From an archaeon (GTDB lineage Archaea > Aenigmatarchaeota > Aenigmatarchaeia > Aenigmatarchaeales > JACQIB01), in assembly GCA_035291225.1 (NCBI GenBank), contig DATDSO010000004.1, positions 490,765 to 554,764 of the forward strand: DNA of 64,000 bases, written 5' to 3'. Shown here piece after piece: positions 14,785 through 30,812 of the stretch. The position numbers and the translations under genes were made by a program. Within the stretch, counting starts at the first letter, position 1; the number at the start of each line of letters is the position of its first letter. Below the pieces are notes generated by a model that saw only the letters and a list, made by a program, of their open reading frames with translations, did not search any database and had not been told where the DNA came from.

Positions 14785-15390
14785 ATGCCCAAGCGCGCAA
14801 AGCATTCTAAATTGAAAAGAAAAGTTTCTCATGCAAAGCATAAAGTTTCCCGTGCGGCGAAGAAAGTCAGAAAAATCGCGCACAAGAAAATTTCTGTAGT
14901 AAAGAAAGAGATTTCTTCTACGACCAAAAAATTCAAATCCTCTGTTACAGAATTTCTGGAAAAGCACAAAATTTCATTTGAAGTCCAGCCGCACAAGAAA
15001 GATGTTTGGTCCGCAGAAGATATTGCGGCCCAGAGAAAAGTTCCGCTCAAGCAGGTTGTGAAATGCCTGGTTTTGACAGACGGTACAAATCATGTTGTCG
15101 CGTGCGTGCCTGGGGACAGAAAAGTAAAAGCAGGATTAGTAAAGCAAACTGCCGGCACAGGAAAATTAGAATTTTTACACGAGAAGCATTTGAAAAAAGT
15201 TACAGGGCATCCTTTGGGAACAACTTCTCCAATAGGGCTCGCGAGCAAAGTTCCTGTTGTAATTGATGAGCGCTTGGCAAAATTAAAACATGTTTCCATT
15301 TCCAGCGGGCACAAAAAATTTGGAATAAAAGTTTCCACAAAAGATTTGCTGAAAGTTTCCGGCGCGCAGGTTGCGAAGATTTCTGAGTGA
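14785..15390 (+). CDS. YbaK/ProX-type aminoacyl-tRNA deacylase domain protein with Lys-rich N-terminal extension
   Basis: C-terminal about 150 aa resembles the YbaK family (VTGHPLGTTSPIGL...VVIDERL). The N-terminal 60 aa is extremely K/R-rich (possible tRNA-binding tail). Confidence 0.7.
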   Translation: MPKRAKHSKLKRKVSHAKHKVSRAAKKVRKIAHKKISVVKKEISSTTKKFKSSVTEFLEKHKISFEVQPHKKDVWSAEDIAAQRKVPLKQVVKCLVLTDGTNHVVACVPGDRKVKAGLVKQTAGTGKLEFLHEKHLKKVTGHPLGTTSPIGLASKVPVVIDERLAKLKHVSISSGHKKFGIKVSTKDLLKVSGAQVAKISE

Positions 15391-15452
15391 TTTCTGTTTT
15401 TCCAGATAGATTTAAATGTTTTTCAATTTAATTATTACAGTGAGTTGATTAA

Positions 15453-16022
15453 ATGACAGATGAAGCTATCGAAGCCTTTCCTGAGCCAGATCCAGAGCTT
15501 GCTGCACTTATTTCATGTATAGCCCCAATGCAATTTGTGCGTTGGGCCAGAGAAGAAACAAATAAAAAAAGAATAGAACTTCGTGAGGCCCCAATTTCAC
15601 CAACCGATATGGAAGATAGCAGCCTTATGTGGATTCACATAACAGGAATGTTAGGCATGACTGCTGTTGGCTTTGGCAGAGGAGCTCATCAATATTTAAT
15701 TCTGAAAATTGATAATGAAAGAGCAAGGCTTTATGATCCGATGAGGGGCAAAAGGCAAGTGGCTGCATCTGAAGTAAGTTATGATAGCGTTAGATTCTCG
15801 AAAAATATTTTTTCTAGAGCCAATAAAGCAAGAGGGGCTGGTGCGGTATTAAAAGACTTTCTATCTGCTGAAGAATATGAGCTTGATGTTAGTTTGGGTA
15901 GAATACAAGAAGACAGGTATAACTGTTGCCCGCTTGCTCTTTATGCCGCATTGCTTGCAAACGCAAAAAGCCCAAGATACGCACGGGAGCTTAATGTTGA
16001 AGAAATAAAGAGAATCGCCTAG
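15453..16022 (+). CDS. Hypothetical protein
   Basis: 189 aa globular ORF. Confidence 0.55.
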   Translation: MTDEAIEAFPEPDPELAALISCIAPMQFVRWAREETNKKRIELREAPISPTDMEDSSLMWIHITGMLGMTAVGFGRGAHQYLILKIDNERARLYDPMRGKRQVAASEVSYDSVRFSKNIFSRANKARGAGAVLKDFLSAEEYELDVSLGRIQEDRYNCCPLALYAALLANAKSPRYARELNVEEIKRIA

Positions 16023-16063
16023 AGAAGAATTATTTAAATCTATGTTTGTTATCTTTTAATTGG

Positions 16064-16234
16064 GCTCCCATCGTCTAGTCCGGTCAAATTTGCCGAGAGG
16101 ATCAGAGCTTCTCAAGCTCTTGACATGGGTGGCGTATTTCAATTTCAGATTTGCGCCCATGAATTCAAACTAAGTGAAGCAAGTTTCACACGCTTTCAAA
16201 AGCTTCGCTTTCAAAAATCCCGTTGGGGGCACCA
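16064..16234 (+). tRNA. tRNA-Glu (anticodon CUC), intron-containing with unresolved non-canonical insertions (D-loop about 11 nt, T-arm about 80 nt); CCA encoded
   Basis: Acceptor GCTCCCA/TGGGGGC-A-CCA. Archaeal tRNA-Glu D-loop signature TAGTCCGGTCAA. Anticodon arm AGAGC-TTCTCAA-GCTCT. T-stem ATGGG/CCCGT separated by an insert. TATA ATTATTTAAATC at 16029-16040 (-28). Confidence 0.45.
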
Positions 16235-16256
16235 GTTTTATCTAATTTCAAAAAAA

Positions 16257-16496
16257 TTATTTCGCGTACTCTGCTGCTTTTGCGACATAATCCCCGGAAG
16301 AAATATCAGTAGGCTCAATTGTGCAATCAAAGCAATGCTGATTAGTTTGCACGCCACAGTACCTTATTTTTGGATCCCAGCCGATCTTTCCTTCTTGCAG
16401 GCACAACTCCTGCAAAGTCAATTCTATGAAATCCTTCTCATTTTCACTTAAATGAGGGTTGTCGGTATGATGCAAAAAACCAACGCGCCTTGCCAT
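16257..16496 (-). CDS. Small hypothetical Cys-containing protein
   Basis: Likely start MARRVGF. Globular sequence ...HTDNPHLSENEKDFIELTLQELCLQEGKIGWDPKIRYCGVQTNQHCFDC... Confidence 0.4.
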   Translation of the reverse strand: MARRVGFLHHTDNPHLSENEKDFIELTLQELCLQEGKIGWDPKIRYCGVQTNQHCFDCTIEPTDISSGDYVAKAAEYAK

Positions 16497-16546
16497 GATT
16501 TTAATTACCAGAAAAACTTTATAAAGTGGTGTGCAGAAAATAAATA

Positions 16547-17380
16547 ATGCGAAAGCGCACAAATTATTTCAAGATTTTCTTTGTGACAGCAGTTTTTGCC
16601 TTGGCTATATATGCGAGCGTTATTAGCGCGCAGACTTATGGCGGTGGGAAAATTTCGATTCAAGGAAAACTTTCTGACGCAGACGGAAAGCCGCTTGATG
16701 GAAATTTTCAGCTGAAATTTGATTTTCTAAGTGCCGCGAATAATGTTTTGATAAAATCTGTTGGGCCTCAGGCTGTTAGTGTTAAAAAAGGATTTTTCAC
16801 TGCTCAGATTGATCCAACAGGTTTGAGCTTTACTATTCCGTATTTAGTTGATGTTTCAGTTGAGGGGCAGAAGCTTTCTCCAAGTTTTATTCTTTCTTAT
16901 GCGCCTTACGCTTTGAGGGCTGTGAATGCTGATTCTGCGGTTAGTGCTGCAAGTGCTGCTGCGCTTTCTGGGAATTTGGATGCCTCAAAAATTTCTGGTC
17001 AAATCACAAACACGCAAATACAAAATTTGGACGCCTCAAAACTTACTGGCAGCTTAAGCGTTGACAGAATTTCTGATGGCTCTGTAACTGGCGCGAAAAT
17101 AAAGGATGGGGATGTTTCTTTGAGCGATGTGGGGTTTGTTGCCGGCGGGAAAAAATCTGGACAAAATAGCTATGGAATTCAATTTGCAATAGATTCTCAA
17201 TATGGAAGGAGAAATGCTTTTTCTCTCGGAACAACTCCTCTTGTAGTTTGCAGCACAGAAACCGCGAAAACATTTTGTGTAGCTGGAGCAATTACTAACA
17301 ACGGCTTCACTGCGATTGTTTATGATAATAATGGAGCTCTGACATCTGCGCCCATAAATTGGATCGCCATTGGCAGCTAA
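16547..17380 (+). CDS. Secreted beta-rich protein with tail-fibre/collar-like short repeats
   Basis: Signal peptide (FFVTAVFALAIYASVISAQT). Repeats LDASKISGQITNTQIQNLDASKLTGSLSVDRISDGSVTGAKIKDGDVS resemble the short collar repeats of phage tail fibres and adhesins (resemblance only; nothing was aligned). Confidence 0.65.
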   Translation: MRKRTNYFKIFFVTAVFALAIYASVISAQTYGGGKISIQGKLSDADGKPLDGNFQLKFDFLSAANNVLIKSVGPQAVSVKKGFFTAQIDPTGLSFTIPYLVDVSVEGQKLSPSFILSYAPYALRAVNADSAVSAASAAALSGNLDASKISGQITNTQIQNLDASKLTGSLSVDRISDGSVTGAKIKDGDVSLSDVGFVAGGKKSGQNSYGIQFAIDSQYGRRNAFSLGTTPLVVCSTETAKTFCVAGAITNNGFTAIVYDNNGALTSAPINWIAIGS

Positions 17381-17430
17381 TTTCTTCAAATTCAATCAAT
17401 TTAAAAAGTTTACTATACAAATAATTTCCT

Positions 17431-20400
17431 ATGAGTAATGCCTCTGTGGAAAGAAACATCGCCCCAGAAATTTTGCATGAAGCAGCCAGAGAAGCTGGAT
17501 ATTCTCTCGAACAGAGAGATGGGAGATATATTTTGAAAGGAGCAGGAAGAGTTGGAAGCGAAGTTTATCAAAGAAAAGTAGAAGAAGTAATGGCAAATGT
17601 TTCTGATGCTCTTGCAGATAAAGGAGTTTGGAATTCTCCTCAGGCTCATGAAACCTTGGAAACTCTTTCGCATTCTTTTCGCGGGTTTGATCCTGATTCT
17701 CCTGATAATGGAAATTATGGAAGCGAAAGCCACGAAACAAAATGGGGTTTTCCGAGTTTAGTTGCCGGCTTGTTTGGGGCGGCCGCAATTACTGGAGTTG
17801 CTTACGGGCTCGCAAAAGAATTTGCTCCGCATCTGCCGGATTTAGGACATTTAAGTTTTACAATGGGGGCGAGCGGAGAGTCAGCAAGAAGCTATCAGTC
17901 GGGAGATATTCATGATTACCCTGATATGGTTTCTAATTTAGAAAAATTTAAAACAGATTCTCAGGCTGCGATCGCAGATGCAAGCTTGGACCAAACAGAT
18001 GTTCAAAATTTGCATTCGGATATTTCTGATGTTAATGCAGGAATGCAAATTGTTTTTTCTCCAATTAACAATTCTGATTTTAATCAGACTGCGAAACAGA
18101 TTAGAGGCGATATGGAGAAGTTGCAAACACCCAACGAAGGAGACCCCATACCGCTTGTGATCGATCCTGAAAAGAACGCAGCATTCCAATCTCTCAAAAC
18201 AAATCTCTTTCCAAAAGTTAACCAAACTTTAATAGACTGGAAAATCACAAACCGTGGAATTGAGCATCTAAATTATCCTGACAACGGAACTGCCGCGGGC
18301 CAGATGATGAGTAGCCTGCTTTCGGAAATTTCTCAGGACTATGGATTTTACAGGCAAGTTGAACAAACTCAAAAAACAATAACAGGAATTTCTGATTTGG
18401 GAAAAGATGACGCGCATACAGATTTGCCGCTGAAAGAATTTCTGAGAAAACTTTACACAGACACGCAGGAAATCCAAACTTGGCTGAATCCTAATGACCA
18501 ATCGCAGAGAGCAAAGAGCAATCAGATAGATAAATACTTCTCCCCATTTGTCGCGCCGTCGCAAGCAAATAAATATGCGCAATTTTTTGAAACAACTGCC
18601 CAAGTCTTGAACAGCGCTTTGAGATTAATAGAAACTCCTGATGAAAATGTTCCGTATCCTGAAATGGATTTGACTCCGCCGCACATTATTTCAATAGAAG
18701 GATTGCTGGAAATCGAAGCAGGGACAGTTTGGAATGGAAGAATTTTTGCAGATGACCCCGGTCCGATAAGAACTGCAGGAGTTGATTATTTCAGTATTTC
18801 TGTTTTAAAACCTGACATCAGAACAGATTCTTTGAATGTCAGCGCAAACGGAATTTTCAATTATACCCCAGATTTGGCTGGAGATTATTTGTTTTCTATT
18901 TTCCCAACAGATAAATCTGGAAACAGAGCTTCAAATAATTTTGATTGGAACTTTTCTGCTTGGAAAGACAAAAAAGCTCCAACAGTTTCGGTGAAAAATG
19001 ATTTCAGAAAAAGTTTGTATGAGAACGAAACCCAGTGGATAAATTTCACAGCTTCAGATGACAGAACTGGGATAAGTGAAATCAAAGTTTTGTTTGGCGG
19101 AAATTATTACAATGCTACACCAACAGGTGGAATTAATTATCAGGCAAAATTCAAAATTGGAGCGCCGGGGAATAAAACTGCGCAGATTTTCGCAAGAGAT
19201 GGAAGGAATAATACAGCAAACGCTTCTATAAATTTTTCTGTTTTGGAAATCCCAGACACAATACCGCCTAAAATTTTCGAACTGCAGGGAGTTTCTGAAG
19301 GGCAAATTCTTGCGCCGGGAAATGTCACAATTACTGCAGGTGCGCGCGATAACATAATAGATAGCCAGAGGGGAAACAAGCCGCTCGACAACGTGGAATT
19401 TATTTTAGATGGAAAGGTTTATGCTGGGGAGCATATGCTTGATGACTGCACATTATCTATCTGCAATGAAGTTTGGATGTTAAGGACAAATCTTGGCGAG
19501 GGAAAACACACCATTTCTGCCCGCGCATATGATTTGGCTGGAAATGTCGGCGTAGATTATCCTACAATTAACTTCACTGCTAAAGAGCCTGTGCCGGATA
19601 ATAAAAATGTCCGTTCTGATGGAAGCCCGAGTCCGTTGCCATTTGTCGCCCTCGGAGCTTTGGGTGCAGTTGGGGGCGGATTATATCTCGGCATGAGAGA
19701 TGGGGTTGGAATAGAAAGAGTAGTTTATGTTCATAATGATGGAAGAATGATAAAAAGAAGGAAATGGGTTGATACTTCTGGAACAGATGAGGAAATAGAA
19801 ATGGGAATGATTAGCGCCGTGGGCACATTTATCAGAGATGCTTACGGCGGCGCAACAAGAAAGCATCAAATAAGCATACCTCTAAAAGATGGTCGGCTAC
19901 ACAACACAAATCTGCTTTTTGCGCGCGGAAGAGATTCTACATTAGTTGCAAGTGTTTCTGGAAGTGATGGCGAAAATGTTGTCAGAAGAATGGAAAAGGC
20001 AATCTATCCTTTGGAAGAAAATTTCAAGCCCGCTGAATGGGATGGAGATATAAATCCTGGCAGAACAGCGATGGTTGATCCATTTTTAGAGGGGATAAAA
20101 TCTCCTACAGTTCCTGATAGATTCTCAGTACTTTGGGATAGAATTTCTGGAAGGAATAGTTATAGAGCAGGAAAGCCAAGAGGAACAGTTGTCCTGACGC
20201 CAGCGAGAAGAGGACCATCCCAGAGGGAAATTGAATTGGCGCAACAGCTTGCGGCAATGCAGCAACAACTCGCAGCAGCAGAACAATCTGCTGGCGAGGC
20301 AATGATATTGAGAAGCCAGCTTGCGCAGAAAGAAGAGCAGTTGAGATGGTTTGAAAGCGAAGTTTTCAGATTAAATTCGGTTGCGCAGGATATAAGCAGG

Positions 20401-20529
20401 CCGCAGGAAGAGAGAGATGATGCAGGAGCTAGCGCAGCAAGACTTGGAGAGGAACTTAGAAGGACACGCAGCCTTATGGAGAAATTGGCGCAATCAGATG
20501 TGGGGGCAACCGAGACGGAGCAGAAATAA
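17431..20529 (+). CDS. Large (1032 aa) membrane-associated protein with Ig-like repeat region and C-terminal coiled coil
   Basis: Two predicted TM helices (around aa 110 and 740), a beta-rich middle (possible CARDB/Ig-like folds), a C-terminal Q/E-rich coiled coil. Confidence 0.7.
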   Translation: MSNASVERNIAPEILHEAAREAGYSLEQRDGRYILKGAGRVGSEVYQRKVEEVMANVSDALADKGVWNSPQAHETLETLSHSFRGFDPDSPDNGNYGSESHETKWGFPSLVAGLFGAAAITGVAYGLAKEFAPHLPDLGHLSFTMGASGESARSYQSGDIHDYPDMVSNLEKFKTDSQAAIADASLDQTDVQNLHSDISDVNAGMQIVFSPINNSDFNQTAKQIRGDMEKLQTPNEGDPIPLVIDPEKNAAFQSLKTNLFPKVNQTLIDWKITNRGIEHLNYPDNGTAAGQMMSSLLSEISQDYGFYRQVEQTQKTITGISDLGKDDAHTDLPLKEFLRKLYTDTQEIQTWLNPNDQSQRAKSNQIDKYFSPFVAPSQANKYAQFFETTAQVLNSALRLIETPDENVPYPEMDLTPPHIISIEGLLEIEAGTVWNGRIFADDPGPIRTAGVDYFSISVLKPDIRTDSLNVSANGIFNYTPDLAGDYLFSIFPTDKSGNRASNNFDWNFSAWKDKKAPTVSVKNDFRKSLYENETQWINFTASDDRTGISEIKVLFGGNYYNATPTGGINYQAKFKIGAPGNKTAQIFARDGRNNTANASINFSVLEIPDTIPPKIFELQGVSEGQILAPGNVTITAGARDNIIDSQRGNKPLDNVEFILDGKVYAGEHMLDDCTLSICNEVWMLRTNLGEGKHTISARAYDLAGNVGVDYPTINFTAKEPVPDNKNVRSDGSPSPLPFVALGALGAVGGGLYLGMRDGVGIERVVYVHNDGRMIKRRKWVDTSGTDEEIEMGMISAVGTFIRDAYGGATRKHQISIPLKDGRLHNTNLLFARGRDSTLVASVSGSDGENVVRRMEKAIYPLEENFKPAEWDGDINPGRTAMVDPFLEGIKSPTVPDRFSVLWDRISGRNSYRAGKPRGTVVLTPARRGPSQREIELAQQLAAMQQQLAAAEQSAGEAMILRSQLAQKEEQLRWFESEVFRLNSVAQDISRPQEERDDAGASAARLGEELRRTRSLMEKLAQSDVGATETEQK

Positions 20530-20562
20530 AAACTTTTTAAATTGCCGCATGGAAACTGATTC

Positions 20563-21774
20563 ATGAAACAGAATGAAAACAGCAGGCTTTCTGCAAAAAA
20601 ATTTCCGATTCCGCTAATTTCTTTTCTGGCGGGAATTCTTTTCATCGCGATTTCATCTGCAGGATTTTCATCTTATCAGTCTCCGAATTATAGCGGAGAG
20701 TTTTCTTCGGGATATTTTGATTCTCCAAAGAATTCAAATTATAGCTTGCAAATAAGGACAGGAGATTCTTTAACCGGAGTTGCGGCAAATTCAAATTACA
20801 CCCTAAGTCTGGGAAGCATTTATTCTTTTTCTGAGGATTTGGCTCCACAGTTTTCTAATATTTCTCAAAGCTCAAGCACGCCAAAAGAGGGTGGACAAGT
20901 TATTTTGTCAGCATATTTTTCAGATGATAAGGGCCTAGCCGGAGCAATAATTTCTACTAATGAGAGCGGCACATTTGTTAATGAAAGTATTCAAATTTCC
21001 GGATTAGAAAAGCAGACTGATTACGTTTGGAATAAGCAAACTAAAGCCGGCACAACTGTGACATGGAAATTTTTTGTTTCTGATAGTGCGGGAAATTACA
21101 ACGCCACCCCAGAAATCTCTTTTTTCGTGGGAGCAACTGATTTGAATCCTCCTCAAATATTGTCCACAGAAATTTATCCCACCCAACCTTCTGCAGGAGA
21201 ACAGGCAGGATTTATGGCAGATGTTTCAGATGATTTCGGTCTGGCTTCTGCTGTGCTGGAATTAAATGGAAAAAATGTGAGCACTGTTAATTTAGCCGGA
21301 AAAAAGTTGATTGCTGAATTTAGAGTTATTCCGGAGGGTTCTGCCGGCGACAAGTTATCATGGAAAATATTTATCCGCGACTCAACGGGAAAAGAAGTAG
21401 TTTCTGAAGCGAAAACTTTTACACTCTTAACCGCACCACCCAAAACATCGGGATCTGGAGAATGCAAAGAATCGGAAAAGCCAAAACCGCTGCCGATAGA
21501 GTGCACCGGCGGCATGAGAAAGGCTTTCGATGTTTCGTGTGATGCCATTACAGGAAAATGGGTTGTTACGGGCAGAAATGTAATTTGTACACCAGAGGAA
21601 GAGCAAAAGCAGAAAAGCGCAAATTATGTTTTGATAATTGTTGTGATTATTATTTTGGCGGTTATCGGCGGGGCAGGATATCATATTTACATCAAAAACA
21701 AAAAAGTAGAAAAAGATAAAAAAGAAGAAAAAAGTGAAAATGCCGAAAGTGAAGAAATTGAGTCTGGGGCTTAA
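20563..21774 (+). CDS. Surface protein: N-terminal signal, two Ig-like modules, C-terminal TM anchor plus K/E-rich cytoplasmic tail
   Basis: 403 aa. A module starting DLAPQFSNISQSS...SGLEKQ...TWKFFVSDSAGNYNATP is paralogous to modules in the next gene. Confidence 0.7.
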   Translation: MKQNENSRLSAKKFPIPLISFLAGILFIAISSAGFSSYQSPNYSGEFSSGYFDSPKNSNYSLQIRTGDSLTGVAANSNYTLSLGSIYSFSEDLAPQFSNISQSSSTPKEGGQVILSAYFSDDKGLAGAIISTNESGTFVNESIQISGLEKQTDYVWNKQTKAGTTVTWKFFVSDSAGNYNATPEISFFVGATDLNPPQILSTEIYPTQPSAGEQAGFMADVSDDFGLASAVLELNGKNVSTVNLAGKKLIAEFRVIPEGSAGDKLSWKIFIRDSTGKEVVSEAKTFTLLTAPPKTSGSGECKESEKPKPLPIECTGGMRKAFDVSCDAITGKWVVTGRNVICTPEEEQKQKSANYVLIIVVIIILAVIGGAGYHIYIKNKKVEKDKKEEKSENAESEEIESGA

Positions 21775-21805
21775 TCTTTTTAAAATCAGAAAGTTAGTTC
21801 TTCTA

Positions 21806-23137
21806 ATGAAAATTTTTGGATTGGTACTTTTTGTTTTCTTGGCAATGGCAATTACAGCAACCGCGCAGGCGGATTCTAGCCAGTCTCCCGCAGCGCTGAA
21901 CTACACACCCGCAGAAAATACTTTTTGGGATATGGACTCTGTTCTAGAATTTTCAGCATGCTGGAATAAACCCATAGACAAGGCGGAGTTTTGGACAAAT
22001 AATTCCGGTGCGCTGCAAAAAAATATTTCAGCAAGAATTTCTGGAAATTGCAGTTATGCGACATATAGAACGCCGAACACGACAACTTCAATACAATGGT
22101 TCCTGAATGCCAGCGATGCATTCGATCTGACAGGAAAAACAGATACCGCACTATTATTCGTAAAAGATTTGCCGCCACAGTTTTCAGAAATTTCCCAGAA
22201 TGCTACAGAGGCTAAAGTCGGCGGCGGGGTTATGGTTTCAGCCAGAATAAAAGACAAAACAGGCCTGTCATCGGTGATTTTGTCTGTAAATGATACAGGA
22301 GAATTCAGGAATGTTTCGCAGAAAAAAATCAGCGGGTTGGAATATATTGCGAGTTTTGCATATTCACTCTCCGCAGATTTAGAGCCTGAAAACACTGTTG
22401 TGTGGAAACTTTTCTCAAATGATACAAAAAATAATTTCAATACAACCAATCTTGGTTATTTCTATATTTCGGCGTGCCCTGAAACTTGCGAAGGTCAGCC
22501 TGTTGGTTCCTGCACAGAATATAGCGACTGCTCTAGTGGAAACCAGAACAAAGTTTGCTTTGCCTGCGATAAATCCACAGGATATTCATGCGAACGCAAA
22601 ATAGAAACGAAATCTTGCGAGATTACAGAAGGAAAGGATGATGCACAAAATGAAATAGCATCTGCTGAGGATCAAATAATTTCTGTAAAATCCAGTGAGC
22701 CACCCCGCAATACAAGTGCTGCGGAAGAATTTTTAAGCGAGGCAAAAAAAGCTTTCAGCGCAGGAAACTATCAGAAAGCTCTTGAGAGGACAGCTGCTGC
22801 AAAAAACGCTGCAATTTCTGCGCCGATAATTACAACAAAGGAAGAGGGCTCGGACCAGACAGGGCTTATTGTTGCTGCTGTTGTTTTAATTTTGATTATA
22901 GGCATGGCGTTTCTTTTCAGAGAGAAAATATCAGCCTCTCTGCAAAAATTCAAACCATCAGCAAAGGAAGAAAAGAAAAAAATTGAGGCCCCGCCAACTT
23001 GTGAGATATGTGGCAATCTTTCAGAAAAACTTTATGAATGCGAGGAATGTGGAAAAAAGGTTTGCTTTGACCATGCGCGCAGCTTTAAGGGGCATTCATT
23101 TTGCTCAGATTGTTTGAAGAAAAGAGGGTTAATGTAA
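21806..23137 (+). CDS. Surface protein paralogue with Cys-rich stalk, C-terminal TM anchor and cytoplasmic C4 zinc-ribbon tail
   Basis: Signal peptide MKIFGLVLFVFLAMAITATAQA. A DLPPQFSEISQNA... module paralogous to the previous gene. TM (LIVAAVVLILIIGMAFLF), then CEICGNLSEKLYECEECGKKVCFDHARSFKGHSFCSDCLKK. The track ORF starts at 21734 and overlaps the upstream gene. Confidence 0.7.
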   Translation: MKIFGLVLFVFLAMAITATAQADSSQSPAALNYTPAENTFWDMDSVLEFSACWNKPIDKAEFWTNNSGALQKNISARISGNCSYATYRTPNTTTSIQWFLNASDAFDLTGKTDTALLFVKDLPPQFSEISQNATEAKVGGGVMVSARIKDKTGLSSVILSVNDTGEFRNVSQKKISGLEYIASFAYSLSADLEPENTVVWKLFSNDTKNNFNTTNLGYFYISACPETCEGQPVGSCTEYSDCSSGNQNKVCFACDKSTGYSCERKIETKSCEITEGKDDAQNEIASAEDQIISVKSSEPPRNTSAAEEFLSEAKKAFSAGNYQKALERTAAAKNAAISAPIITTKEEGSDQTGLIVAAVVLILIIGMAFLFREKISASLQKFKPSAKEEKKKIEAPPTCEICGNLSEKLYECEECGKKVCFDHARSFKGHSFCSDCLKKRGLM

Positions 23138-23168
23138 ACATATTTAAAATACAAAAAATAGATAGTTT

Positions 23169-23696
23169 TTGATTGGTATGGCTGGATACAGAAGAGAAAC
23201 CATGACATTTGCTGTTTCGAGCATGGAAAAATTTGTGAAGACAGGAAGTATTGCCGTTTCTTCCTACGCGGGCGGCGGAGGCAAAAATTCTTACAGAAAT
23301 GTCGAAGAAGCTTCTTCTGCCATAAAAGAAGCATTGAAATCGGGAACTAATGTTGACATTGTTGCTCCAAAGGGGTCCAGCGGGGAATTATTCAGAGACA
23401 TAATAAGAAAAGATTTTCCTCAGGCAAGAATCCGCGAGGACGCTTCAATGACAGAAATTTATATAAGCGGCGTCCCAAAACCAAAAATAGTACGTGAATT
23501 TGTTTCTTCTCCCACAAGTTCACATTATAAAGCTCCTATAGTTGTTCGAGAACTTTCTTCAGAAGAACCTTCTAGAGGGCACAGAGCTCCTGTAATTGTT
23601 TCTGCAGAAGAACCCGGTGTTTTAGATTCTATAGCAAAAACTTTCAGAGATTTGGACGCAGCTTACAGAAAAGGAAGAGCCCCCGCAAGAGCTTAA
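23169..23696 (+). CDS. Hypothetical protein
   Basis: 175 aa. Confidence 0.5.
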   Translation: MIGMAGYRRETMTFAVSSMEKFVKTGSIAVSSYAGGGGKNSYRNVEEASSAIKEALKSGTNVDIVAPKGSSGELFRDIIRKDFPQARIREDASMTEIYISGVPKPKIVREFVSSPTSSHYKAPIVVRELSSEEPSRGHRAPVIVSAEEPGVLDSIAKTFRDLDAAYRKGRAPARA

Positions 23697-23727
23697 CAAA
23701 TATAAACAGACTCTGAGAAATAATCTT

Positions 23728-24996
23728 ATGCCACTTGAAGAAATTATTGTTGGGCGCGAGCCTTCTGATGTTGATAAATACGGAAAGGCCGGATGCGTTT
23801 TTCTCGGAAAGCATGTTGTTGGCACGGGCTTTGACACGCATATGGCGAATCCAGTTTTGCTTGATGTTGTTCGGCCGCATATTTATCTGATTGTTGGAAA
23901 AAGAGGGAGTGGAAAATCTTATTCGGGAGCGATAATTTCTGAGGAGATTATGAAACTACCGGATGAAGTGAAGCAAAATCTTTCTGTGCTTATGGTTGAT
24001 ATAATGGGTATTTTTTGGAGCATGAAAAATTCGAATGAAAGAGATTTGCTCTTGCTGAAAAGCTGGGGGCTTGATCCCAGAGGGTTTTCGATAGAAAGCG
24101 TTGTGCCAATCGGTTTGGAGGATTTATACAAAACTTCTGGCGTGCCTTACGATTCAACATTTTCAGTCAGGCCGTCTGAACTTTCTATTGGCGACTGGCT
24201 CACCACATTTGATCTTAACCTTTTTAGCCCGCTGGGAATTTTGCTTGACAGAATAATAAAAAAATTTTCAGATACAAATTTTTCCATAGAAAATATTGTT
24301 GATATGATAGGGAGAGATGAGCGCGCAGAAGAAAAGGAGAAGCTAGCTCTTCAGAACAGATTTTTGTCTGCGAAAGAATGGGGGATTTTTTCTGACAAAG
24401 CAACGCCTATAGAAAATTTTCTTAAGCCGGGGATTACAGTTGTTTTAGATGTGAGTCTGATGGAATGGTCTGTCAGAAATCTTGCTCTAGGAATTCTGGC
24501 AAGAAAAATTTACGCATCGAGGACTGCAGCACGCCGCGAGGAGGAGGCTTCCATAATTGCAGGCGAGGAAACAAAAAAAGTTCCCATGAGCTGGATAATA
24601 ATCGATGAAGCGCATAACTTTATCCCTTCTGACGGAAAAACTTCTGCAACCGAGCCAATGCTGACTTTAATCAGGCAGGGGAGACAGCCGGGAATTTCTC
24701 TTGTGCTAATTACGCAACGTCCGAACAAACTGCATGAAGATGCGATTTCCCAGAGTGATCTGATACTTGCTCACAGGCTAACTGCAAAGCCAGATTTGGA
24801 TGCACTTTCTTCTGTAATGCAAACCTACCTTCTGGAGGACATAAAGAAAAGCATCGCGGATATGCCGAAAACCAAAGGGGCTGCGGTTGTGCTTGATGAT
24901 AATTCTGAAAGGCTATTTTCAATACAAGTCAGGCCAAGGCAGAGCTGGCACGCCGGCGGCTCTCCGATTGCGCTAAAAGAGAAAAAGCAGTTCTGA
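23728..24996 (+). CDS. HerA/FtsK-superfamily P-loop ATPase (DUF87-like)
   Basis: Walker A GKRGSGKSYS, Walker B IIIDEAHNF, arginine-finger region LIRQGRQPGISLVLITQRP. Confidence 0.8.
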   Translation: MPLEEIIVGREPSDVDKYGKAGCVFLGKHVVGTGFDTHMANPVLLDVVRPHIYLIVGKRGSGKSYSGAIISEEIMKLPDEVKQNLSVLMVDIMGIFWSMKNSNERDLLLLKSWGLDPRGFSIESVVPIGLEDLYKTSGVPYDSTFSVRPSELSIGDWLTTFDLNLFSPLGILLDRIIKKFSDTNFSIENIVDMIGRDERAEEKEKLALQNRFLSAKEWGIFSDKATPIENFLKPGITVVLDVSLMEWSVRNLALGILARKIYASRTAARREEEASIIAGEETKKVPMSWIIIDEAHNFIPSDGKTSATEPMLTLIRQGRQPGISLVLITQRPNKLHEDAISQSDLILAHRLTAKPDLDALSSVMQTYLLEDIKKSIADMPKTKGAAVVLDDNSERLFSIQVRPRQSWHAGGSPIALKEKKQF

Positions 24997-25020
24997 TTAT
25001 TTTTATATCGAATATAAATT

Positions 25021-28000
25021 TCATTCTGAGTTTGTGTGAGGCACTCTCCAAGGGCGCGGACTAACCGAAGAAATTATTTGCCTGCGATAGGTGAGAATTA
25101 AAATCAATACAACCACACCACCGATTATTAAAACAAGAGTTCCAAAATCAATCGGGGGAGATTCTTTCCCGCTTTCTTGTGTTATTTTCCCGCTTTCTAC
25201 TCTAGGAACAATCTTTCTGATATTAGATGTTGTAATTTTTGGGGCTGTCGGGGGAGTTGCGCCCGTTGGTGCTTCCTTTAGGCTGACGGTAAAACTTTTT
25301 GTTTCTGTTTTCACTTCATTTCCATTCGAATCCTTCACAACCAAGTACCACCCAATATTCCCTTCAATAAGATTTTCATTTTTCCATTCGAATGCTGTTG
25401 AAGCTTCTAGACCATTAAGATTTTGAGATGCATAGAATTTGAAATCAGCATCAACAGGTTCTTTTATGTAGATGGTCGCTGATTCGAGTTCTATATCATC
25501 GCGCCCTTTGAATCTCAAAAAGTTAGACCAGCTTTTGTAAATTTCATCTGCCGACTGTCCCAACTCGAGAATTTCTGGCGCTGCGATGTCTTCCCCTACT
25601 CCTATTTCAGGATCTGATTCACCCACATTTCCAAATACATCTTCAACTTTCATCTGCCAAGTTATATTTTTTTCAGATATCTTCGGCATTTTTTGCTCGA
25701 AGTTCACCCAGCCTTCTGTGATGGGTTTTTCAAAAACAAATGTCTGAACTTTATGCAGTCCCGAACCAAAATCCATCCAAAATTCTGCTTTTTTCAATGG
25801 GCTGTCATCTTTCCAGTATTTTGAGAAAACAATATTCTGATTTGGTTTTGCTTTTTGTGGCGAGCGGTTTTCTGTCCATTGAGGAGGATTCATCACACGA
25901 ACTTTCTGATTTTTCAATGCCCGATTTCCAGCAGAATCGACTGCCGTGAACGTGAAAAGCAGTTCGGAATTTTCTTTCAGGTTAGAATCAGTAACATATT
26001 CAACTATATCACAATCTTCGGTGCCGCTGCTTGTTGTAAGGTTTATGTCTTTTGAGAAGAGTCTGCTGCCGCCGACAAGAGCTTCAATTTTAGAAGTCGC
26101 TGAAGCGCGATTCCAATCACTTACGCAAATTTTAATTTTAAGCGCCTGTGAGGATGAAACCTTTTCAGGCAGGCCTTCAAATCTTATTATAGGAGATTCG
26201 GAATCTTTTACTTTAAAATACTTTTCATCCGTCTCGATGGAATTTCCAGACGCATCCCATGCTTTTATTTTCCATGAAACAATATCGCCTGGCATAAGGT
26301 TTTCTTCGGCCGAGGGTTTTGGTAAAGTTATTTCAAAATCCGCTGCTTCAAGTGAACCCGATGGAGTGGTCCCAGACAGAAGTTTCAGGGTTCCATCAGA
26401 AGTTGTTGCATTAAGTTTTAACATGGCTGCTACAAGAGCGCCGCAATCTGAATTCGGTTCTGTATAATTGTTTTTGAAACTCGCTGAAAAAGAGATTTTA
26501 TCGCCCGGATTATATTCTGCTGCATTCGTTGAAGTTAGGTCCAGATAACTTATAGATTTCCTTTCTGCACAGGACGGCTTTACATTAAATGTTCCTGAGT
26601 AATCGGTCTGTATTGTGTTTCCTTCTTTATCAGAAAGATATAATTTCCATTCGAATTCTGTCTGTCCGGAAAGCTTTTGCGAGTACCATGAAGCCGGAAT
26701 TTCCAAAGGAAAATTCCAAACTTTTTTTCTTATGAGATTAAAAGATTGGACATCTTCAAAGTTTCCCCCGATTTTTCTTGCCTGAATTTTCACTAATCCC
26801 AATTCAACATTGTCCGATGCTGTGAGAAAGACAGAAAAGTTCGCTCCATCAAAAATTATTTTTCTTACACTGTCTATTTTTTCAACGCGCGGCGGTTCAA
26901 AATCTTTCACAATTATCGAACCGTAGATAGGAACGTTTGCGAAATTTCCATCATTATCTTCTGCAGAAATATACCAAATTACTTTGGAATTGCTTTTTGC
27001 ATCAGCTGGAATCTGGACTGCGAATTCGATTACCTGCTGCGGGTTGTTGTTTTGCAATGAAAATGGAGTTCCGTCGCTTTCTTTTTCAGTTCCATCTTGT
27101 TTTACATAATCAGCATAAAATCTGATTTTTTTCAGTGACAGGTTGTCAAAGCATTTTGTGTGAACAATGACCTTCTCTCCGCGCCCCGCCTTTACAGGAG
27201 CGCTATTTATATCGCCTTCGGTGTTGTAGTAGATGGAGCAGGTTGGCGGCTGCACATCTTTGACTCTAAATTCAGTTTCAAACTTCTCGAAATGTCCAGC
27301 AAAGTCTTTAACAAAAACTTTATATGTGAAATTTTGTTCCTGTTGGTCACCTCCGAAAACTTTTTGCCTGCAATCTCTTCCGCAGGAAAATTCCCCATCA
27401 AAGATATTTGTACCAATAGGTTTTTGACTTCCGATTTTTGATATGGATTCTTCCAAGCTTCCAGAAACAACAAAGACTTCAATAGAGCCCAACTGACCTA
27501 TCAAATCTCCCTCTGTTTTATAATCATCTTCACAGGAAATGCGGAGTGTGGCTGGATCGTTTGGGGTAACGCTGTTTGATTCACCGCGGCCAACTGAAAG
27601 GACGCAACGTGGTGGTTTTGTATCTGTGTCTGCAGGTTTGCCTACGATTGAAACATTAGTTTCATAAGAGTTTTTTTTGCCTGCGGTATTTGAAGCAGAA
27701 ATTTTGAATTTGAGATCTTTGCCTACATCGGAGCTCCTTGTTTTGCAGTTCTTGAATTCAACATTGTAGAGTGAAGGTTGTTTCGCTACAATCTGTGTCG
27801 AGCCGCATCTTTGTTCAAGATTTGCTGTTGCAACGATGGTGTCAGAATTTAGTTTTCCCACATCTTCCCGAATTGAAAATTTAACAGAAAAATCTGTATC
27901 ATACCATGCTGTTGCCGGCGCGCTTAACAAAATAATTTCAGGCGGGGTTTTATCGGCAACTGCAGGAACTGTTTCCTCAACTCTTTCCTCTTTTTTGCTT

Positions 28001-28806
28001 AGGCTTGCCGGCGCGCACAGACCACGGCCAGTTGGATTATTCCATACACATTCATCTCCGTAATTCTGACAAAATCTTCCGCGGCCACATGGAATATTTC
28101 CCATCTCGCTGATTGAAGAAAGGTTTATTTGCGATGCATCTTCGAAGTCCACTATAGTTATTGGAACTTTTATCTGGGTAAATTTGGGCCCCAGAGAGCT
28201 AGGTAAAAGCTCTGAGTCAATGAAATCTTCTCGCGGTCCGCATCCCGCCGTTACACAATAAGCCCCCGATTCTGCAGGTAAAATAAAATTACCGGCTTCT
28301 GCATCAAGGCCTTCTTTTCCCGAGCTTGTGTCGGTGTCTTTACAATCCTTCCACCCAGCAATGTTGCATCCATCGCCCATAAATTGTTTCATAACAAGAG
28401 CATTCATGCCAAAATCCCCACCCTCACTCGGACAAAAGCCCTTTACAATTGAAATTCCTGCACGCATTTCTTTTTGAGAACCTTTATTGCAGTTTAGATT
28501 GAATGCATTTATCTTGACATTTTCGCCAGCATCGAATATTTTGAGGTCACCTGTTGGGTTGAACTGGCGCTTTGAAGGCGGAATTATTTCAATTCTATGC
28601 CTGTCGGTCGCAAATGTAAAAAAGCCCGCCGACTCAGAGAAACTTTCTTTAGCCGGTGCAGGAGCGTTGAGATGATTTTTTCCAAAGCTGGCGAAGTCTT
28701 CAGAATTTCCGAAAATAAATGCGGCCGCAGCAAAAATTGCAATAACAATTGTTGCAATAGCAACCGGATTGTGTTTTTCAGGTACTCCACTGCTCATAGA
28801 CATCAT
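25021..28806 (-). CDS. Giant (1261 aa) cell-surface protein: N-terminal signal/TM, Cys-rich head, many Ig/fibronectin-like beta modules, C-terminal TM anchor
   Basis: N-terminal hydrophobic IATIVIAIFAAAAFIF. C-terminal LVLIIGGVVVLILILTYRRQ with a short tail. Long beta-rich repeats. Confidence 0.8.
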   Translation of the reverse strand: MMSMSSGVPEKHNPVAIATIVIAIFAAAAFIFGNSEDFASFGKNHLNAPAPAKESFSESAGFFTFATDRHRIEIIPPSKRQFNPTGDLKIFDAGENVKINAFNLNCNKGSQKEMRAGISIVKGFCPSEGGDFGMNALVMKQFMGDGCNIAGWKDCKDTDTSSGKEGLDAEAGNFILPAESGAYCVTAGCGPREDFIDSELLPSSLGPKFTQIKVPITIVDFEDASQINLSSISEMGNIPCGRGRFCQNYGDECVWNNPTGRGLCAPASLSKKEERVEETVPAVADKTPPEIILLSAPATAWYDTDFSVKFSIREDVGKLNSDTIVATANLEQRCGSTQIVAKQPSLYNVEFKNCKTRSSDVGKDLKFKISASNTAGKKNSYETNVSIVGKPADTDTKPPRCVLSVGRGESNSVTPNDPATLRISCEDDYKTEGDLIGQLGSIEVFVVSGSLEESISKIGSQKPIGTNIFDGEFSCGRDCRQKVFGGDQQEQNFTYKVFVKDFAGHFEKFETEFRVKDVQPPTCSIYYNTEGDINSAPVKAGRGEKVIVHTKCFDNLSLKKIRFYADYVKQDGTEKESDGTPFSLQNNNPQQVIEFAVQIPADAKSNSKVIWYISAEDNDGNFANVPIYGSIIVKDFEPPRVEKIDSVRKIIFDGANFSVFLTASDNVELGLVKIQARKIGGNFEDVQSFNLIRKKVWNFPLEIPASWYSQKLSGQTEFEWKLYLSDKEGNTIQTDYSGTFNVKPSCAERKSISYLDLTSTNAAEYNPGDKISFSASFKNNYTEPNSDCGALVAAMLKLNATTSDGTLKLLSGTTPSGSLEAADFEITLPKPSAEENLMPGDIVSWKIKAWDASGNSIETDEKYFKVKDSESPIIRFEGLPEKVSSSQALKIKICVSDWNRASATSKIEALVGGSRLFSKDINLTTSSGTEDCDIVEYVTDSNLKENSELLFTFTAVDSAGNRALKNQKVRVMNPPQWTENRSPQKAKPNQNIVFSKYWKDDSPLKKAEFWMDFGSGLHKVQTFVFEKPITEGWVNFEQKMPKISEKNITWQMKVEDVFGNVGESDPEIGVGEDIAAPEILELGQSADEIYKSWSNFLRFKGRDDIELESATIYIKEPVDADFKFYASQNLNGLEASTAFEWKNENLIEGNIGWYLVVKDSNGNEVKTETKSFTVSLKEAPTGATPPTAPKITTSNIRKIVPRVESGKITQESGKESPPIDFGTLVLIIGGVVVLILILTYRRQIISSVSPRPWRVPHTNSE

Positions 28807-28880
28807 AAACAGATTTAATCGGCGCGTTTATAAAGATTTGGAGATTTCTTGGAAGTTTTATCAGAAGATTTACTACATAT

Positions 28881-30239
28881 TTAAAAATCTCGATTGCCTA
28901 TATGTGAAACTTTTCCAACCAAGTGTTTGTTCTCAACTCCGGAAATTTTCGCATCCACAAACTCCCCCAACAAATTCTTTTCGATTTCAATCAGCACAGG
29001 CCTGTAAGCAAAATTCCTTCCGATGAATTGCCCTGCTGATTTCCCTTTTTCTGAAACCAAAATTTCTCCCGACCATCTAATCCAAGCCTTATTTTTTTCC
29101 GCAGAAATTCTGTCGCATAATTCTGTGGCCGCGCGCGTCCTGTCCTTCACAATTTCTGTTGGAACTTTTTTCATTTTTGCCGCTGCTGTTCCACCCCTAT
29201 GACCATAGGCGGAAATATTAACATAATCAAATTTTATTTTTTCCAGAACTTTTAGAGTATCTTCGAATTGCTTTTCTGTTTCTTCTGGAAAGCCCACGAT
29301 TATATCTGTCCATATTGTAATCTGCGGAAACTCTTTTCTGAAAGCGGAAACTATTTTCTGGAATTGTGAAACAGTATAATGGCGGTTCATTCTTGCCAGA
29401 ACTCTGTCATTTCCAGATTGAATTGGCAGATGCAAAAATTTGTAAATTTTTTCGCTCTTGTAAGCTTTTATAAGTTGCGGAAGAATTTTCAGAATTCCGT
29501 CGGGGTTTGCCATTCCATTTCGTACGCGAAAGTTTCCTTGTATCGAGCAAACATTTTTTAAAAGCTCTGGTAGGCTGAATGCACTTCTATCAGAACCATA
29601 AACGGCATTATCCTGTGAAGTGAGCCAGACTTCCCTGCAACCCTGTTTCAGCGAATTTTTTACGTCTTTAACAATCGCACCCTGAGAAAAACTTTTTGTA
29701 TTTCCTTTCGCAAGCTTTGTTGCGCAAAAGGTGCAGCGGCTGTTGCAGCCATCCAAAATCTGAACAATATTGACAATTGGATTGAAGCGGATTTTTGGAA
29801 GCAAAGGCTTTTCTAATTCTGATTTTTCTAAAAATTCCACGCGGCCGCCGGAAAAAGTTTTTTGCGCAATTTCAACAACTTTATCAATATTATGCGTGCT
29901 CAACAAACTTGCATTCGGAGAGGCTTTTAAAATTTTTTCTTTTCCAGGTTGAGCCATGCAGCCGGCAACAATAATCTTTTTGCTTCCATTGAGCTTGCGC
30001 AGGCGGTGCAAAATTTTCTGCTCGGTCACATGCTTTACATAGCAAGTATTAAGCAAAATTGTATCAGCTTCATTTTCATTTTTCACGATTTGAAAATTTT
30101 CTTTTGCAAGCAGGCCAGCCATTGCCTCGCTCTCAGCTTGGTTTGCAGAGCAGCCATAAGTTTCCAGAAAAATCTTTTGAGGGTTTTTCTGCCTCGCAGA
30201 ATCTTTCAGATTCTGCCGATCCAGAAGAATTTTTTTCAT
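28881..30239 (-). CDS. Radical-SAM methylthiotransferase, MiaB/RimO/MtaB family (likely tRNA t6A37 methylthiotransferase)
   Basis: N-terminal MTTase domain (ETYGCSANQAESE), radical SAM CNSRCTFC, C-terminal TRAM. Confidence 0.88.
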   Translation of the reverse strand: MKKILLDRQNLKDSARQKNPQKIFLETYGCSANQAESEAMAGLLAKENFQIVKNENEADTILLNTCYVKHVTEQKILHRLRKLNGSKKIIVAGCMAQPGKEKILKASPNASLLSTHNIDKVVEIAQKTFSGGRVEFLEKSELEKPLLPKIRFNPIVNIVQILDGCNSRCTFCATKLAKGNTKSFSQGAIVKDVKNSLKQGCREVWLTSQDNAVYGSDRSAFSLPELLKNVCSIQGNFRVRNGMANPDGILKILPQLIKAYKSEKIYKFLHLPIQSGNDRVLARMNRHYTVSQFQKIVSAFRKEFPQITIWTDIIVGFPEETEKQFEDTLKVLEKIKFDYVNISAYGHRGGTAAAKMKKVPTEIVKDRTRAATELCDRISAEKNKAWIRWSGEILVSEKGKSAGQFIGRNFAYRPVLIEIEKNLLGEFVDAKISGVENKHLVGKVSHIGNRDF

Positions 30240-30245
30240 AGCAAT

Positions 30246-30812
30246 CTATTTTTCTTTCTGCTCTTTCGCGGGCTTTGAAATGCGGCCTTTTTCATAAGTG
30301 TGTATGAGCTTCTCAAGTTCAAGCGCGATTTTTCTCGGGTTTTTAATACCAAGCATTTGAATTGCTTCCGAGCCTGATGTTGGACCGATGGCAATGGTAC
30401 CGTAATTCAAAAACCGCGCGAAGTATCCCTGCTTTACATTCACATCTGAAATGCTGCTGAGGAAAACGCTGTCACGTTTTTTTTGTATTATGCCATGCTC
30501 AATTACAACTTGGCTCGGCGTGATTTTGTATGAGTGGCTGAAGCGGAAAACTTCGACATAAACTATAAAAAATGCGATTACACCGAAAATCGCGTATGCA
30601 GTAAGTGCATGCATTGCAAAGCCAAGAGCCGGCAGGAAAAAATATAGAGCTGCGAAAACCGCTGCTATCAAATAATCTTTAAGAAAAAATATTCGGCTGG
30701 GTTTTATGCTGTAGATTGGAACTTCAATTGGCATGGGAATTTTTGATTTTCTGAAAATATAAATACATGAAAGTGGATGAGTTTCTATGCAATCTGCGAA
30801 AATCGCAATCAT
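30246..30812 (-). CDS. Membrane protein with bacterial-type PH (YdbS/DUF304-like) domain
   Basis: Two TM helices then a PH-like beta domain. Confidence 0.6.
   Translation of the reverse strand: MIAIFADCIETHPLSCIYIFRKSKIPMPIEVPIYSIKPSRIFFLKDYLIAAVFAALYFFLPALGFAMHALTAYAIFGVIAFFIVYVEVFRFSHSYKITPSQVVIEHGIIQKKRDSVFLSSISDVNVKQGYFARFLNYGTIAIGPTSGSEAIQMLGIKNPRKIALELEKLIHTYEKGRISKPAKEQKEK

Follow-up and report, generated by a model that had tools for sequence, protein, structure and literature searches.

Adhesin-like envelope proteins and a compact HerA-fold ATPase encoded side by side in a DPANN archaeon

The FtsK-HerA superfamily of ATPases includes membrane-docked translocases (VirB4, CedB, EssC) as well as HerA, which acts with NurA in end resection, and HerA-like motors are also part of anti-phage systems such as Sir2-HerA, DUF4297-HerA and MADS (mad8). 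Described surface proteins of comparable build are the adhesins with Ig-like (Big_7 type) repeats, the giant surface proteins of DPANN archaea and of the candidate phyla radiation (CPR), phage tail fibres and receptor-binding proteins, and the MAT fibres of Bdellovibrio. DPANN archaea need physical contact with their hosts, and the molecules responsible are mostly unknown. In the 64-kb stretch of archaeal DNA analyzed here (the window), genes for five envelope proteins lie next to the gene of a HerA-like ATPase. We interpret this locus as an adhesin island beside a separate, housekeeping, DNA-acting ATPase, with the adjacency reflecting synteny inherited in one clade; we put the probability of this interpretation at roughly 55%.

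The locus contains seven genes. An earlier note on this DNA, made from the sequence alone, had listed the same seven open reading frames (ORFs), and all are present and are also called on three public contigs carrying the same sequence. The features are as follows, in window coordinates:

16547..17380, forward strand: fibre-like protein of 277 amino acids (aa), predicted to be secreted or N-anchored
17431..20529, forward strand: predicted two-pass membrane protein, 1032 aa
20563..21774, forward strand: predicted type-I anchored surface protein, 403 aa
21734..23137, forward strand: paralogue of the 403-aa protein, 467 aa (465 aa in the public calls, which start 6 nt later)
23169..23696, forward strand: soluble ORFan protein, 175 aa from TTG (172 aa from ATG)
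23699..23706, forward strand: TATA-like element AATATAAA, predicted promoter of the ATPase gene
23728..24996, forward strand: compact HerA-fold P-loop ATPase, 422 aa
25021..28806, reverse strand: predicted giant anchored surface protein, 1261 aa, convergent

The window is a segment of an archaeal chromosome encoding TBP, MCM, an Lrp-type regulator and Asp-tRNA synthetase, and relatives of its ATPase carry the label Aenigmatarchaeota. The same sequence is present in the metagenome-assembled genome (MAG) GCA_036788595.1 and in JGI/ENA groundwater-type assemblies. GC content is ~41% and uniform over the locus and its surroundings; recent horizontal acquisition of the island was considered and rejected, as the composition shows no shift there. 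Searches with Rfam and ARAGORN gave no match in the locus.

The ATPase family and its gene neighbourhoods

The 422-aa protein has the Walker A (GKRGSGKS, residues 57-64) and Walker B (IIIDEAHNF, residues 290-298) motifs reported by the earlier note, and its assignment as a DUF87/HerA-type ATPase holds, with the Pfam DUF87 cut-off passed at 29.3 versus 23.2 bits over residues 42-260. It also bears a conserved C-terminal motif, RPRQSWHAGGSP, and has no transmembrane (TM) segment by hydropathy. An AlphaFold2 (AF2) model (pLDDT 76, pTM 0.79) has a short N-terminal beta domain, with strands predicted in residues 6-56, a RecA-like core and a helical insert. Its best Foldseek matches in the PDB are the HerA proteins of Sulfolobus, Thermococcus and Deinococcus (E 1e-14 to 1e-11, TM-score ~0.58), the top one being 4d2i with E 1e-14 over 432 alignment columns.

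The protein thus resembles HerA (PDB 4d2i, 9x1m and 7wrx) in its fold, its Walker motifs, its DUF87 domain and the DNA-repair genes found nearby in many genomes. It differs in being ~80-150 aa shorter and in a sequence identity of only ~15%, and it stays below the cut-offs of the HerA equivalog models (NF040819, 40 versus 970 bits; NF040937, 37.8 versus 800 bits). NurA, Mre11 and Rad50 domains were found neither in the locus proteins, in agreement with the earlier note as to NurA, nor among annotated neighbours in related loci, a comparison that did not extend to whole genomes. In their place, XPF/ERCC4 and DUF460 are candidate nuclease partners. The earlier note had envisaged that the ATPase might turn out to group with housekeeping HerA paired with a distant NurA; this is what we see in spirit, with the qualifications that the protein is not a canonical HerA and that no NurA partner was found; it has the look of a housekeeping paralogue tied to DNA repair.

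The family is large and well conserved. A word-indexed search recovered >2668 homologues, the best 120 of which are all ~420 aa long, 63-73% identical and derived from Aenigmatarchaeota, Nanoarchaeota and Micrarchaeia; the mean column identity of a 27-sequence alignment is 77%. Across 74 GTDB loci the identity is 48-71% in Aenigmatarchaeota, 40-45% in Woese-, Pace- and Nanoarchaeota, 41-44% in Nanohaloarchaea and 45% in Micrarchaeota. An exhaustive profile search gave 330 clusters at E<=1e-30, with further listed members in a euryarchaeal MAG, in Candidatus Poribacteria and in multidomain fusions, the latter including Peptidase_S8 plus ATPase plus winged helix-turn-helix (wHTH), Peptidase_C1 plus ATPase, ATPase plus DUF835, ATPase plus ArsR-type HTH and a tandem double ATPase (distant members, fusions among them: proteins P0240, P0207, P0213, P0214, P0170 and P0128).

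Two distant members stand in settings of their own. The 402-aa Poribacteria protein is the last in a five-gene same-strand cluster of unknowns, one of them 1319 aa long (locus L089; related loci are given L numbers throughout), and a 790-aa family member starts at 9953 (forward strand) of L014, five genes downstream of a regular ATPase gene in a Nanoarchaeota-labelled MAG.

Many orthologues are interrupted exactly after the P-loop GK|S (residues 63/64), and Walker B (~residue 295) is a second insertion site. Intein-like insertions of ~436-438 aa at these sites are found in L025 (8492-11074), L030 (7502-10084), L062 (8498-11128) and L075 (8495-12403); L075 has both and a total length of 1302 aa. 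For about 12 of the 74 GTDB loci the match begins only at residue 63 or 64, consistent with a P-loop insertion, and intein and Hint domains are annotated in two database members of the family. Invasion of catalytic motifs by inteins typifies conserved core enzymes. No description of a compact DPANN HerA-like ATPase family was found in the literature searched, and the family appears to be uncharacterized there; a compact, intein-targeted HerA-fold ATPase family conserved across DPANN is the most interesting by-product of this analysis.

Gene neighbourhoods were compared by calling and clustering ORFs on ~80 related loci. Downstream of the ATPase gene and on the same strand, 34 loci have genes for a ~500-aa DEAD/ResIII helicase and a ~211-aa ERCC4 nuclease (a split Hef), and DUF460 is near the ATPase in 20 loci. 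The DUF460 family is confined to archaea and predicted to be an RNase-H-like nuclease with kinship to Holliday-junction resolvases (PMC3985635). In 23 loci of Aenigmatarchaeota and Nanohaloarchaea, the gene immediately upstream of the ATPase, in the same orientation, encodes an M50-like multi-TM membrane protein of ~190-200 aa, typically ~194 aa, with HExxH and NxxPxxxLDG-type motifs and weak or faint Pfam support (L004 1434-2006, L006 3309-3881, L007 8929-9501, L061 9338-9949 and 19 more loci). The order in Nanohaloarchaea is a weakly Hjc-like gene, the M50-like gene, the ATPase, a 175-aa TM protein, a fused Hef and DUF460; in Woesearchaeota it is RFC, a divergently transcribed M48 peptidase, the ATPase and Trm5. 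The order differs again in one distant archaeon (L088), where the fourth gene upstream of the ATPase is DUF460 and the fifth gene downstream is a fused Hef. Genes for M50, Hef, XPF and DUF460 are all absent from the 64-kb window.

From these counts the deepest associations of the ATPase are with fork- and recombination-repair genes and a small membrane protease, and not with adhesins. By analogy with HerA, the soluble ATPase would probably form a hexameric DNA-translocating ring, and since its deepest neighbours are Hef, XPF/ERCC4 and DUF460 we suggest that it may act with the Hef helicase, XPF/ERCC4 and the RuvC/YqgF-like nuclease DUF460 in stalled-fork or recombination repair. The fold and the neighbourhoods are results of the analysis, from which we infer that DNA is probably the substrate and these repair proteins are probably the partners.

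The small membrane protease leaves room for another role, in which the ATPase would unfold or translocate proteins in partnership with membrane proteases (M50-like, S2P-type), as part of the quality control or processing of membrane proteins, the anchored surface proteins encoded nearby perhaps among them. Such a role fits the position of the M50-like gene in its 23 loci, the M48 gene that divergently adjoins the ATPase in Woesearchaeota and the distant members fused to Peptidase_S8 or Peptidase_C1. We nevertheless find it improbable. The fold and the best matches are those of DNA-translocating HerA, the Hef, XPF, DUF460, RFC and (weakly) Hjc neighbours are at least as conserved, and the window has no M50-like gene. 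The fusions come from distant members, occur with wHTH as well and may belong to conflict systems, and with its Pfam support so faint the M50 assignment rests on the visible HExxH and LDG motifs.

Although VirB4, CedB/CedD and EccC/EssC, membrane-docked translocases of the kind that the earlier note drew on for ATPases beside envelope genes, belong to the same superfamily, scores against such models are 12-26 bits with cut-offs of 346-700, among them CedD (26 versus 600), CedB (12.4 versus 700) and VirB4_plasma (15.6 versus 590); the NCBIfam equivalog models for EccC and for anti-phage HerA are likewise far from reached, and Pfam FtsK_SpoIIIE gives 13.9 versus 24 bits. Unlike these translocases the ATPase has no TM segment, its locus has no CedA-like polytopic channel, and its envelope linkage is confined to one clade.

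A mobile element, provirus or anti-phage defence island built around a HerA-like motor (HerA-Sir2, HerA-DUF4297, MADS-like or a packaging ATPase) is suggested by several matches: PADLOC gives a near full-length match of the ATPase to mad8 (E 9e-20), an ATPase of similarly compact size, and matches to its HerA models. PHROG gives terminase-like and Zot-like ATPases. The 277-aa fibre resembles phage tail proteins, and a tRNA-like element lies at the upstream edge of the locus. We consider this origin very improbable. Searches with Pfam, NCBIfam, PADLOC and PHROG found no effector, integrase, capsid or other mad gene in the locus, no effector or other system gene adjoins the ATPase, and the ATPase is the only protein of the locus that PADLOC matches, with none for the remaining six. 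Base composition shows no anomaly, and relatives of the ATPase and of the fibre are absent from the viral contigs scanned. The PDB sequence matched best by the ATPase is the anti-phage HerA 8xau (E 5e-9, C-terminal half only). Whereas anti-phage HerA and MADS genes are sporadic island genes, this family is a core, intein-bearing DPANN gene at a syntenic housekeeping position.

Linkage of the surface genes to the ATPase

The earlier note had placed the ATPase within the envelope cluster, and this part of its proposal is not supported: the same ATPase (40-71% identical) occurs across DPANN, and most of its loci have no surface genes nearby. When the ATPases are arranged in a neighbour-joining (NJ) tree, only one Aenigmatarchaeota clade has cassettes of large anchored proteins upstream on the same strand. 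Using a hidden Markov model (HMM) of the ~90-aa module shared by the 403- and 467-aa proteins of the window, module-bearing proteins were found no more than six genes from the ATPase in 17 loci, all of that clade and with an ATPase identity of at least 56%; the other ATPase loci gave one module match, 11 genes away. Conversely, a fibre gene and a 403-like gene are found together on two contigs that carry no ATPase: L084, which covers ~10 kb on the upstream side of its fibre gene and 5 kb on the downstream side, and L085, 7.5 kb in all. The earlier note had named a lack of conserved linkage to the ATPase as part of an outcome that would refute its proposal; this applies in part, the linkage being conserved within one clade only.

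The ATPase gene also appears to be expressed on its own. Promoters were predicted by a positional analysis of TATA-like hexamers before start codons in the window. These hexamers peak at -34 to -23, with 42 in two 6-nt bins and 0-8 in every other bin, a distance expected for leaderless or short-leader archaeal mRNAs, and 32 of the 69 window genes have one at -36 to -24. Within the locus, boxes precede the genes of the 277-aa (TTTATA, -29), 1032-aa (TTTAAA, -31), 403-aa (TTTAAA, -27), 175-aa (-26) and 1261-aa (TTTATA, -28) proteins, and the ATPase gene has its box 29 nt upstream of the start codon, right after the stop codon of the 175-aa gene. The 467-aa gene is the only gene of the locus with no TATA-like hexamer upstream; its start lies within the 3' end of the 403-aa gene, and for both reasons the two are probably co-transcribed. 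In orthologues of the ATPase gene a TATA box is retained at the same spacing, irrespective of whether a surface-protein gene or an opposite-strand membrane-protein gene precedes it, and many Aenigmatarchaeota orthologues keep the motif AAATTCTTTTC before the ATG, whatever gene lies upstream. Their conserved leader has TATA at about -30 followed by ...ACTAAATTCTTTTC directly before the ATG (for example L012 1644-1673, L021 4100-4129 and L004 9971-10000); the leader in the window has diverged to …AATATAAACAGACTCTGAGAAATAATCTT-ATG. Because the box sits at the modal distance and is conserved across orthologues, the ATPase is predicted to form its own transcription unit, transcribed independently of the envelope genes.

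The gene between the cassette and the ATPase is not conserved. Its 175-aa product has no TM segment by hydropathy, no family match in Pfam or NCBIfam and no PDB match, and has no homologue in the ~80 related loci, the closest divergent locus included. A conserved small adaptor upstream of the ATPase was considered and rejected, since the genes at that position, which elsewhere encode proteins of 80, 134, 136 or 99 aa or are missing altogether, are unrelated between loci.

We thus favour a model in which island and ATPase stand side by side by inherited synteny and would constitute neither an operon nor a machine. Several observations weigh against it. Surface-like genes are enriched near the ATPase, at 53 of 395 genes within three positions versus 41 of 702 farther away (Fisher p 3e-5), although these counts are phylogenetically dependent. 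L009, whose ATPase is 71% identical, keeps counterparts of the 277-, 1032-, 403- and 467-aa genes around its ATPase, three of them inverted downstream, and in L024 a fibre gene is directly upstream of the ATPase. A soluble ATPase could bind to the sizeable cytosolic tails that are predicted for the 1032- and 467-aa proteins. The M50-like membrane protein (the M48 protease in Woesearchaeota) conserved beside the ATPase, together with the S8 and C1 peptidase fusions of distant homologues, makes a membrane or protein-directed role possible. Conserved order in small genomes can be historical for Hef and DUF460 too, DNA binding by the family is a prediction, and at any one gene a TATA-like hexamer, being AT-rich, might be there by chance.

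These points could be explained if the locus were one functional unit in this clade, with a HerA-like hexamer docking on the adhesin tails or on small membrane partners and powering DNA or protein translocation at adhesin-mediated contacts, as a Ced- or conjugation-like device, or one resembling EssC from type VII secretion (T7SS), of a host-dependent archaeon. The adjacency recurs in the clade and has been kept through an inversion and full flank turnover between the window and L009, whose flanks are wholly different and which share no other gene. Same-strand intergenic gaps are short (31-50 nt), two anchored proteins have predicted cytosolic domains (the coiled-coil-like tail of the 1032-aa protein and the zinc-ribbon-like tail of the 467-aa protein), small multi-TM and M50-like proteins are conserved beside the ATPase in several phyla, and the superfamily holds membrane-docked translocases, with weak NCBIfam matches to CedD and CedB. 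Set against these are an ATPase equally conserved in many lineages without surface neighbours, its own predicted and conserved promoter, the lack of a conserved adaptor gene, and fibre and module genes that cluster without it in L084 and L085. The CedB, CedD, VirB4 and EccC scores are far below cut-offs, and the locus encodes no polytopic channel protein, each of its proteins having two hydrophobic segments at most. In L015 and L024 the surface genes are found on both sides of an ATPase-Hef-XPF block, interleaved with DNA-repair genes, and form no clean operon. On balance we regard a single functional unit as unlikely. Of the cell-cell attachment or translocation apparatus proposed in the earlier note, the adhesin-like cluster is retained and the membership of the ATPase is not; an ATPase beside giant adhesins is insufficient evidence for such an apparatus, which matters when small symbiont genomes are screened.

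A broader and quite unlikely version extends to all of DPANN: the ATPase would be the cytoplasmic motor of an undescribed membrane-associated translocation system, docked by small multi-TM or M50-like proteins, and by adhesin tails in the clade, that moves DNA or protein between symbiont and host at contacts, with Hef, XPF and DUF460 processing the DNA. The association with Hef, XPF, DUF460 and M50-like genes makes the role of the ATPase testable, as DNA repair versus a membrane-linked translocase.

Envelope proteins of the island

All of the large anchored surface proteins encoded in the window belong to this locus except one (618-1694). By hydropathy the 277-, 403-, 467- and 1261-aa proteins have N-terminal hydrophobic segments, and the last three also have C-terminal TM anchors. 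Consistent with the tandem paralogues described in the earlier note, the 403- and 467-aa proteins are 39% identical over 107 aa (E 3e-18). The shared ~90-aa module is Ig-like and matches no Pfam or NCBIfam family; it is present in two copies in each of these proteins and in at least five copies in the 1261-aa protein. The 403-aa protein has a Cys-containing stalk and, after the anchor, an acidic/basic tail predicted to be cytosolic; the 467-aa protein has a Cys-rich stalk and a predicted cytosolic Cys/His zinc-ribbon-like tail, with a weak Pfam match to zf-HIT (residues 421-444, E 0.02). The 1261-aa protein, with no Pfam, NCBIfam or PDB match, has a Cys-rich N-terminal region and a short basic tail after its anchor.

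Homologues of the 403-aa protein adjoin the ATPase in L009 and L024 and occur without it in L084 and L085, a 480-aa homologue of the 467-aa protein (42% identity) is directly upstream of the ATPase in L009, and in L015 and L024 the ATPase-Hef-XPF genes are followed downstream by module-rich giants of 932-1607 aa that are homologous to the 1261-aa protein. Compared with their L009 counterparts, the surface proteins of the window are 38-44% identical and the ATPase 71%, so that the former diverge much faster.

The 1032-aa protein was described in the earlier note as a membrane protein with a coiled-coil tail, and is here corrected to a two-pass protein. It has two hydrophobic segments by hydropathy (110-128 and ~736-754), and 16 of its 18 N-glycosylation sequons lie between them, with none after residue 714, that is, in the last 318 residues. 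This distribution indicates an N-in/C-in topology, with a cytosolic N-terminus (1-109), TM1, a ~600-aa glycosylated ectodomain, TM2 and a ~270-aa cytosolic tail. The tail consists of an alpha/beta region followed by a heptad-like Gln/Ala/Glu-rich end that is coiled-coil-like by eye, as the note had it. The ectodomain passes the Pfam cut-off for the Ig-like Big_7 (26.1 versus 24.1 bits, residues 517-582); a PDB sequence search with the whole protein gave nothing significant. The protein is collinear with a 954-aa homologue in L009 (38% identity). A two-pass protein of this kind could signal across the membrane.

The locus proteins resemble the Ig-like repeat adhesins and the DPANN and CPR giants in their tandem Ig-like modules, predicted export signal and C-terminal TM anchor; like them they are rich in glycosylation sequons, diverge fast and vary in the number of modules. 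Simple adhesins do not usually have cytosolic tails of the zinc-ribbon-like and coiled-coil-like kinds predicted here.

The 277-aa protein is composed of an N-terminal hydrophobic segment, a beta-sandwich, an Ala-rich segment, ~11-aa repeats of the 'KISGxI' type and a C-terminal beta domain; family members end in a common C-terminal domain with NWIAIGS. There are only eight homologues among 5.8 billion proteins, and the number of ~11-aa repeats differs among them. In the AF2 model both terminal beta domains are confident and the fibrous middle is of low confidence. Foldseek aligns the model with phage proteins of the H-type-lectin, tail-fibre and minor-tail kinds (E 4e-5 to 1e-3, with proteins named 'H-type lectin domain' at E 2e-4), and solved structures match weakly (R1 pyocin fibre, 2.5e-3; Helix pomatia agglutinin, 0.03). 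Pfam H_lectin does not match at E<=0.1, and the Bdellovibrio fibre model Bdello_MAT_N (NCBIfam NF053851) gives 18.2 bits versus a cut-off of 60 (E 0.0016). We tentatively describe the C-terminal domain as H-type-lectin-like on the basis of the structural model, and the variable repeats and Foldseek matches lend moderate support to the 'tail-fibre-like repeat' label of the earlier note. The N-terminal beta-sandwich, fibrous repeats of variable length and small C-terminal beta domain are shared with phage tail fibres and receptor-binding proteins and with MAT fibres; unlike phage fibres the protein is cellular and archaeal and has a predicted Sec signal, and its PDB matches are not significant.

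These features agree with the earlier description of an envelope-protein cluster with adhesin-like character in a small-genome DPANN archaeon, with Ig-like modules and a lectin-like fibre tip. In our model the island of five fast-evolving genes would decorate the cell surface; its products would pass through the general Sec pathway, carry N-glycans and be kept in place by TM anchors. Their most likely role, judged from the kinds of domain they carry and from how DPANN archaea live as episymbionts, is attachment of the cell to host or partner cells or to surfaces. The lectin-tipped fibre, the module-built anchored family and the two-pass protein are candidates for the contact molecules of these organisms.

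DPANN cells have S-layers, and the same proteins could be ordinary S-layer or cell-coat components to which the ATPase is irrelevant, as abundant-looking, glycosylation-rich, membrane-anchored proteins with Ig-like modules and an independent ATPase would permit. Here, too, the earlier note had named ordinary S-layer components as an outcome that would undo its proposal, and the domain searches do not point to them: no S-layer family (e.g. S_layer_C) in Pfam or NCBIfam is matched by any locus protein, and the S_layer_C protein that is annotated in the relative L007 is outside the window locus. The distribution is very narrow and divergence fast (the eight fibre homologues), repeat and module numbers vary, and the fibre tip resembles phage receptor-binding and H-type-lectin domains. 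With these features the proteins fit variable adhesins better than a lattice-forming S-layer protein, and we give the cell-coat alternative little credence.

Other features of the window

The upstream edge of the island has an intergenic element of ~180 nt (16058-16240, forward strand) with a tRNA-like 5' end, GGGCTCCCATCGTCTAGTCCGGTC, an anticodon-arm-like hairpin (AGAGC-TTCTCAA-GCTCT) that would give the anticodon CUC, and the 3' end ...GGGGGCACCA. It folds with a closing stem (minimum free energy -57.6 kcal/mol, z -3.8) and could represent a tRNA that is degenerate or rich in introns, or a structured RNA of another kind; ARAGORN reports no tRNA anywhere in the 64-kb window and Rfam no match in 13000-31000. 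A 108-aa ORF overlapping the element (16125-16451) is probably spurious. A 79-aa opposite-strand gene upstream of the fibre gene was considered as a homologue of the 84- and 85-aa genes that bound the L015 and L024 cassettes, and this was rejected. Just upstream of the island, a 189-aa protein is encoded at 15453-16022 (forward strand); the close relatives L083 and L087 have a transglutaminase-core protein of 307-319 aa in its place, of which the 189-aa protein may be a shortened or diverged form.

A separate locus, some 13 kb upstream of the island, is a candidate for encoding a surface filament. It comprises a 745-aa T2SSE/PilB-type (type IV filament) ATPase gene at 1720-3957 (reverse strand), annotated on the syntenic relative L083, and the adjoining gene of a 358-aa protein with an N-terminal hydrophobic segment at 618-1694 (forward strand). 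Towards the other end of the window, five small genes in a row (53592-56361, forward strand) encode proteins of 162-203 aa that may be tandem paralogues, with two predicted TM segments in the first and five or six in each of the other four.

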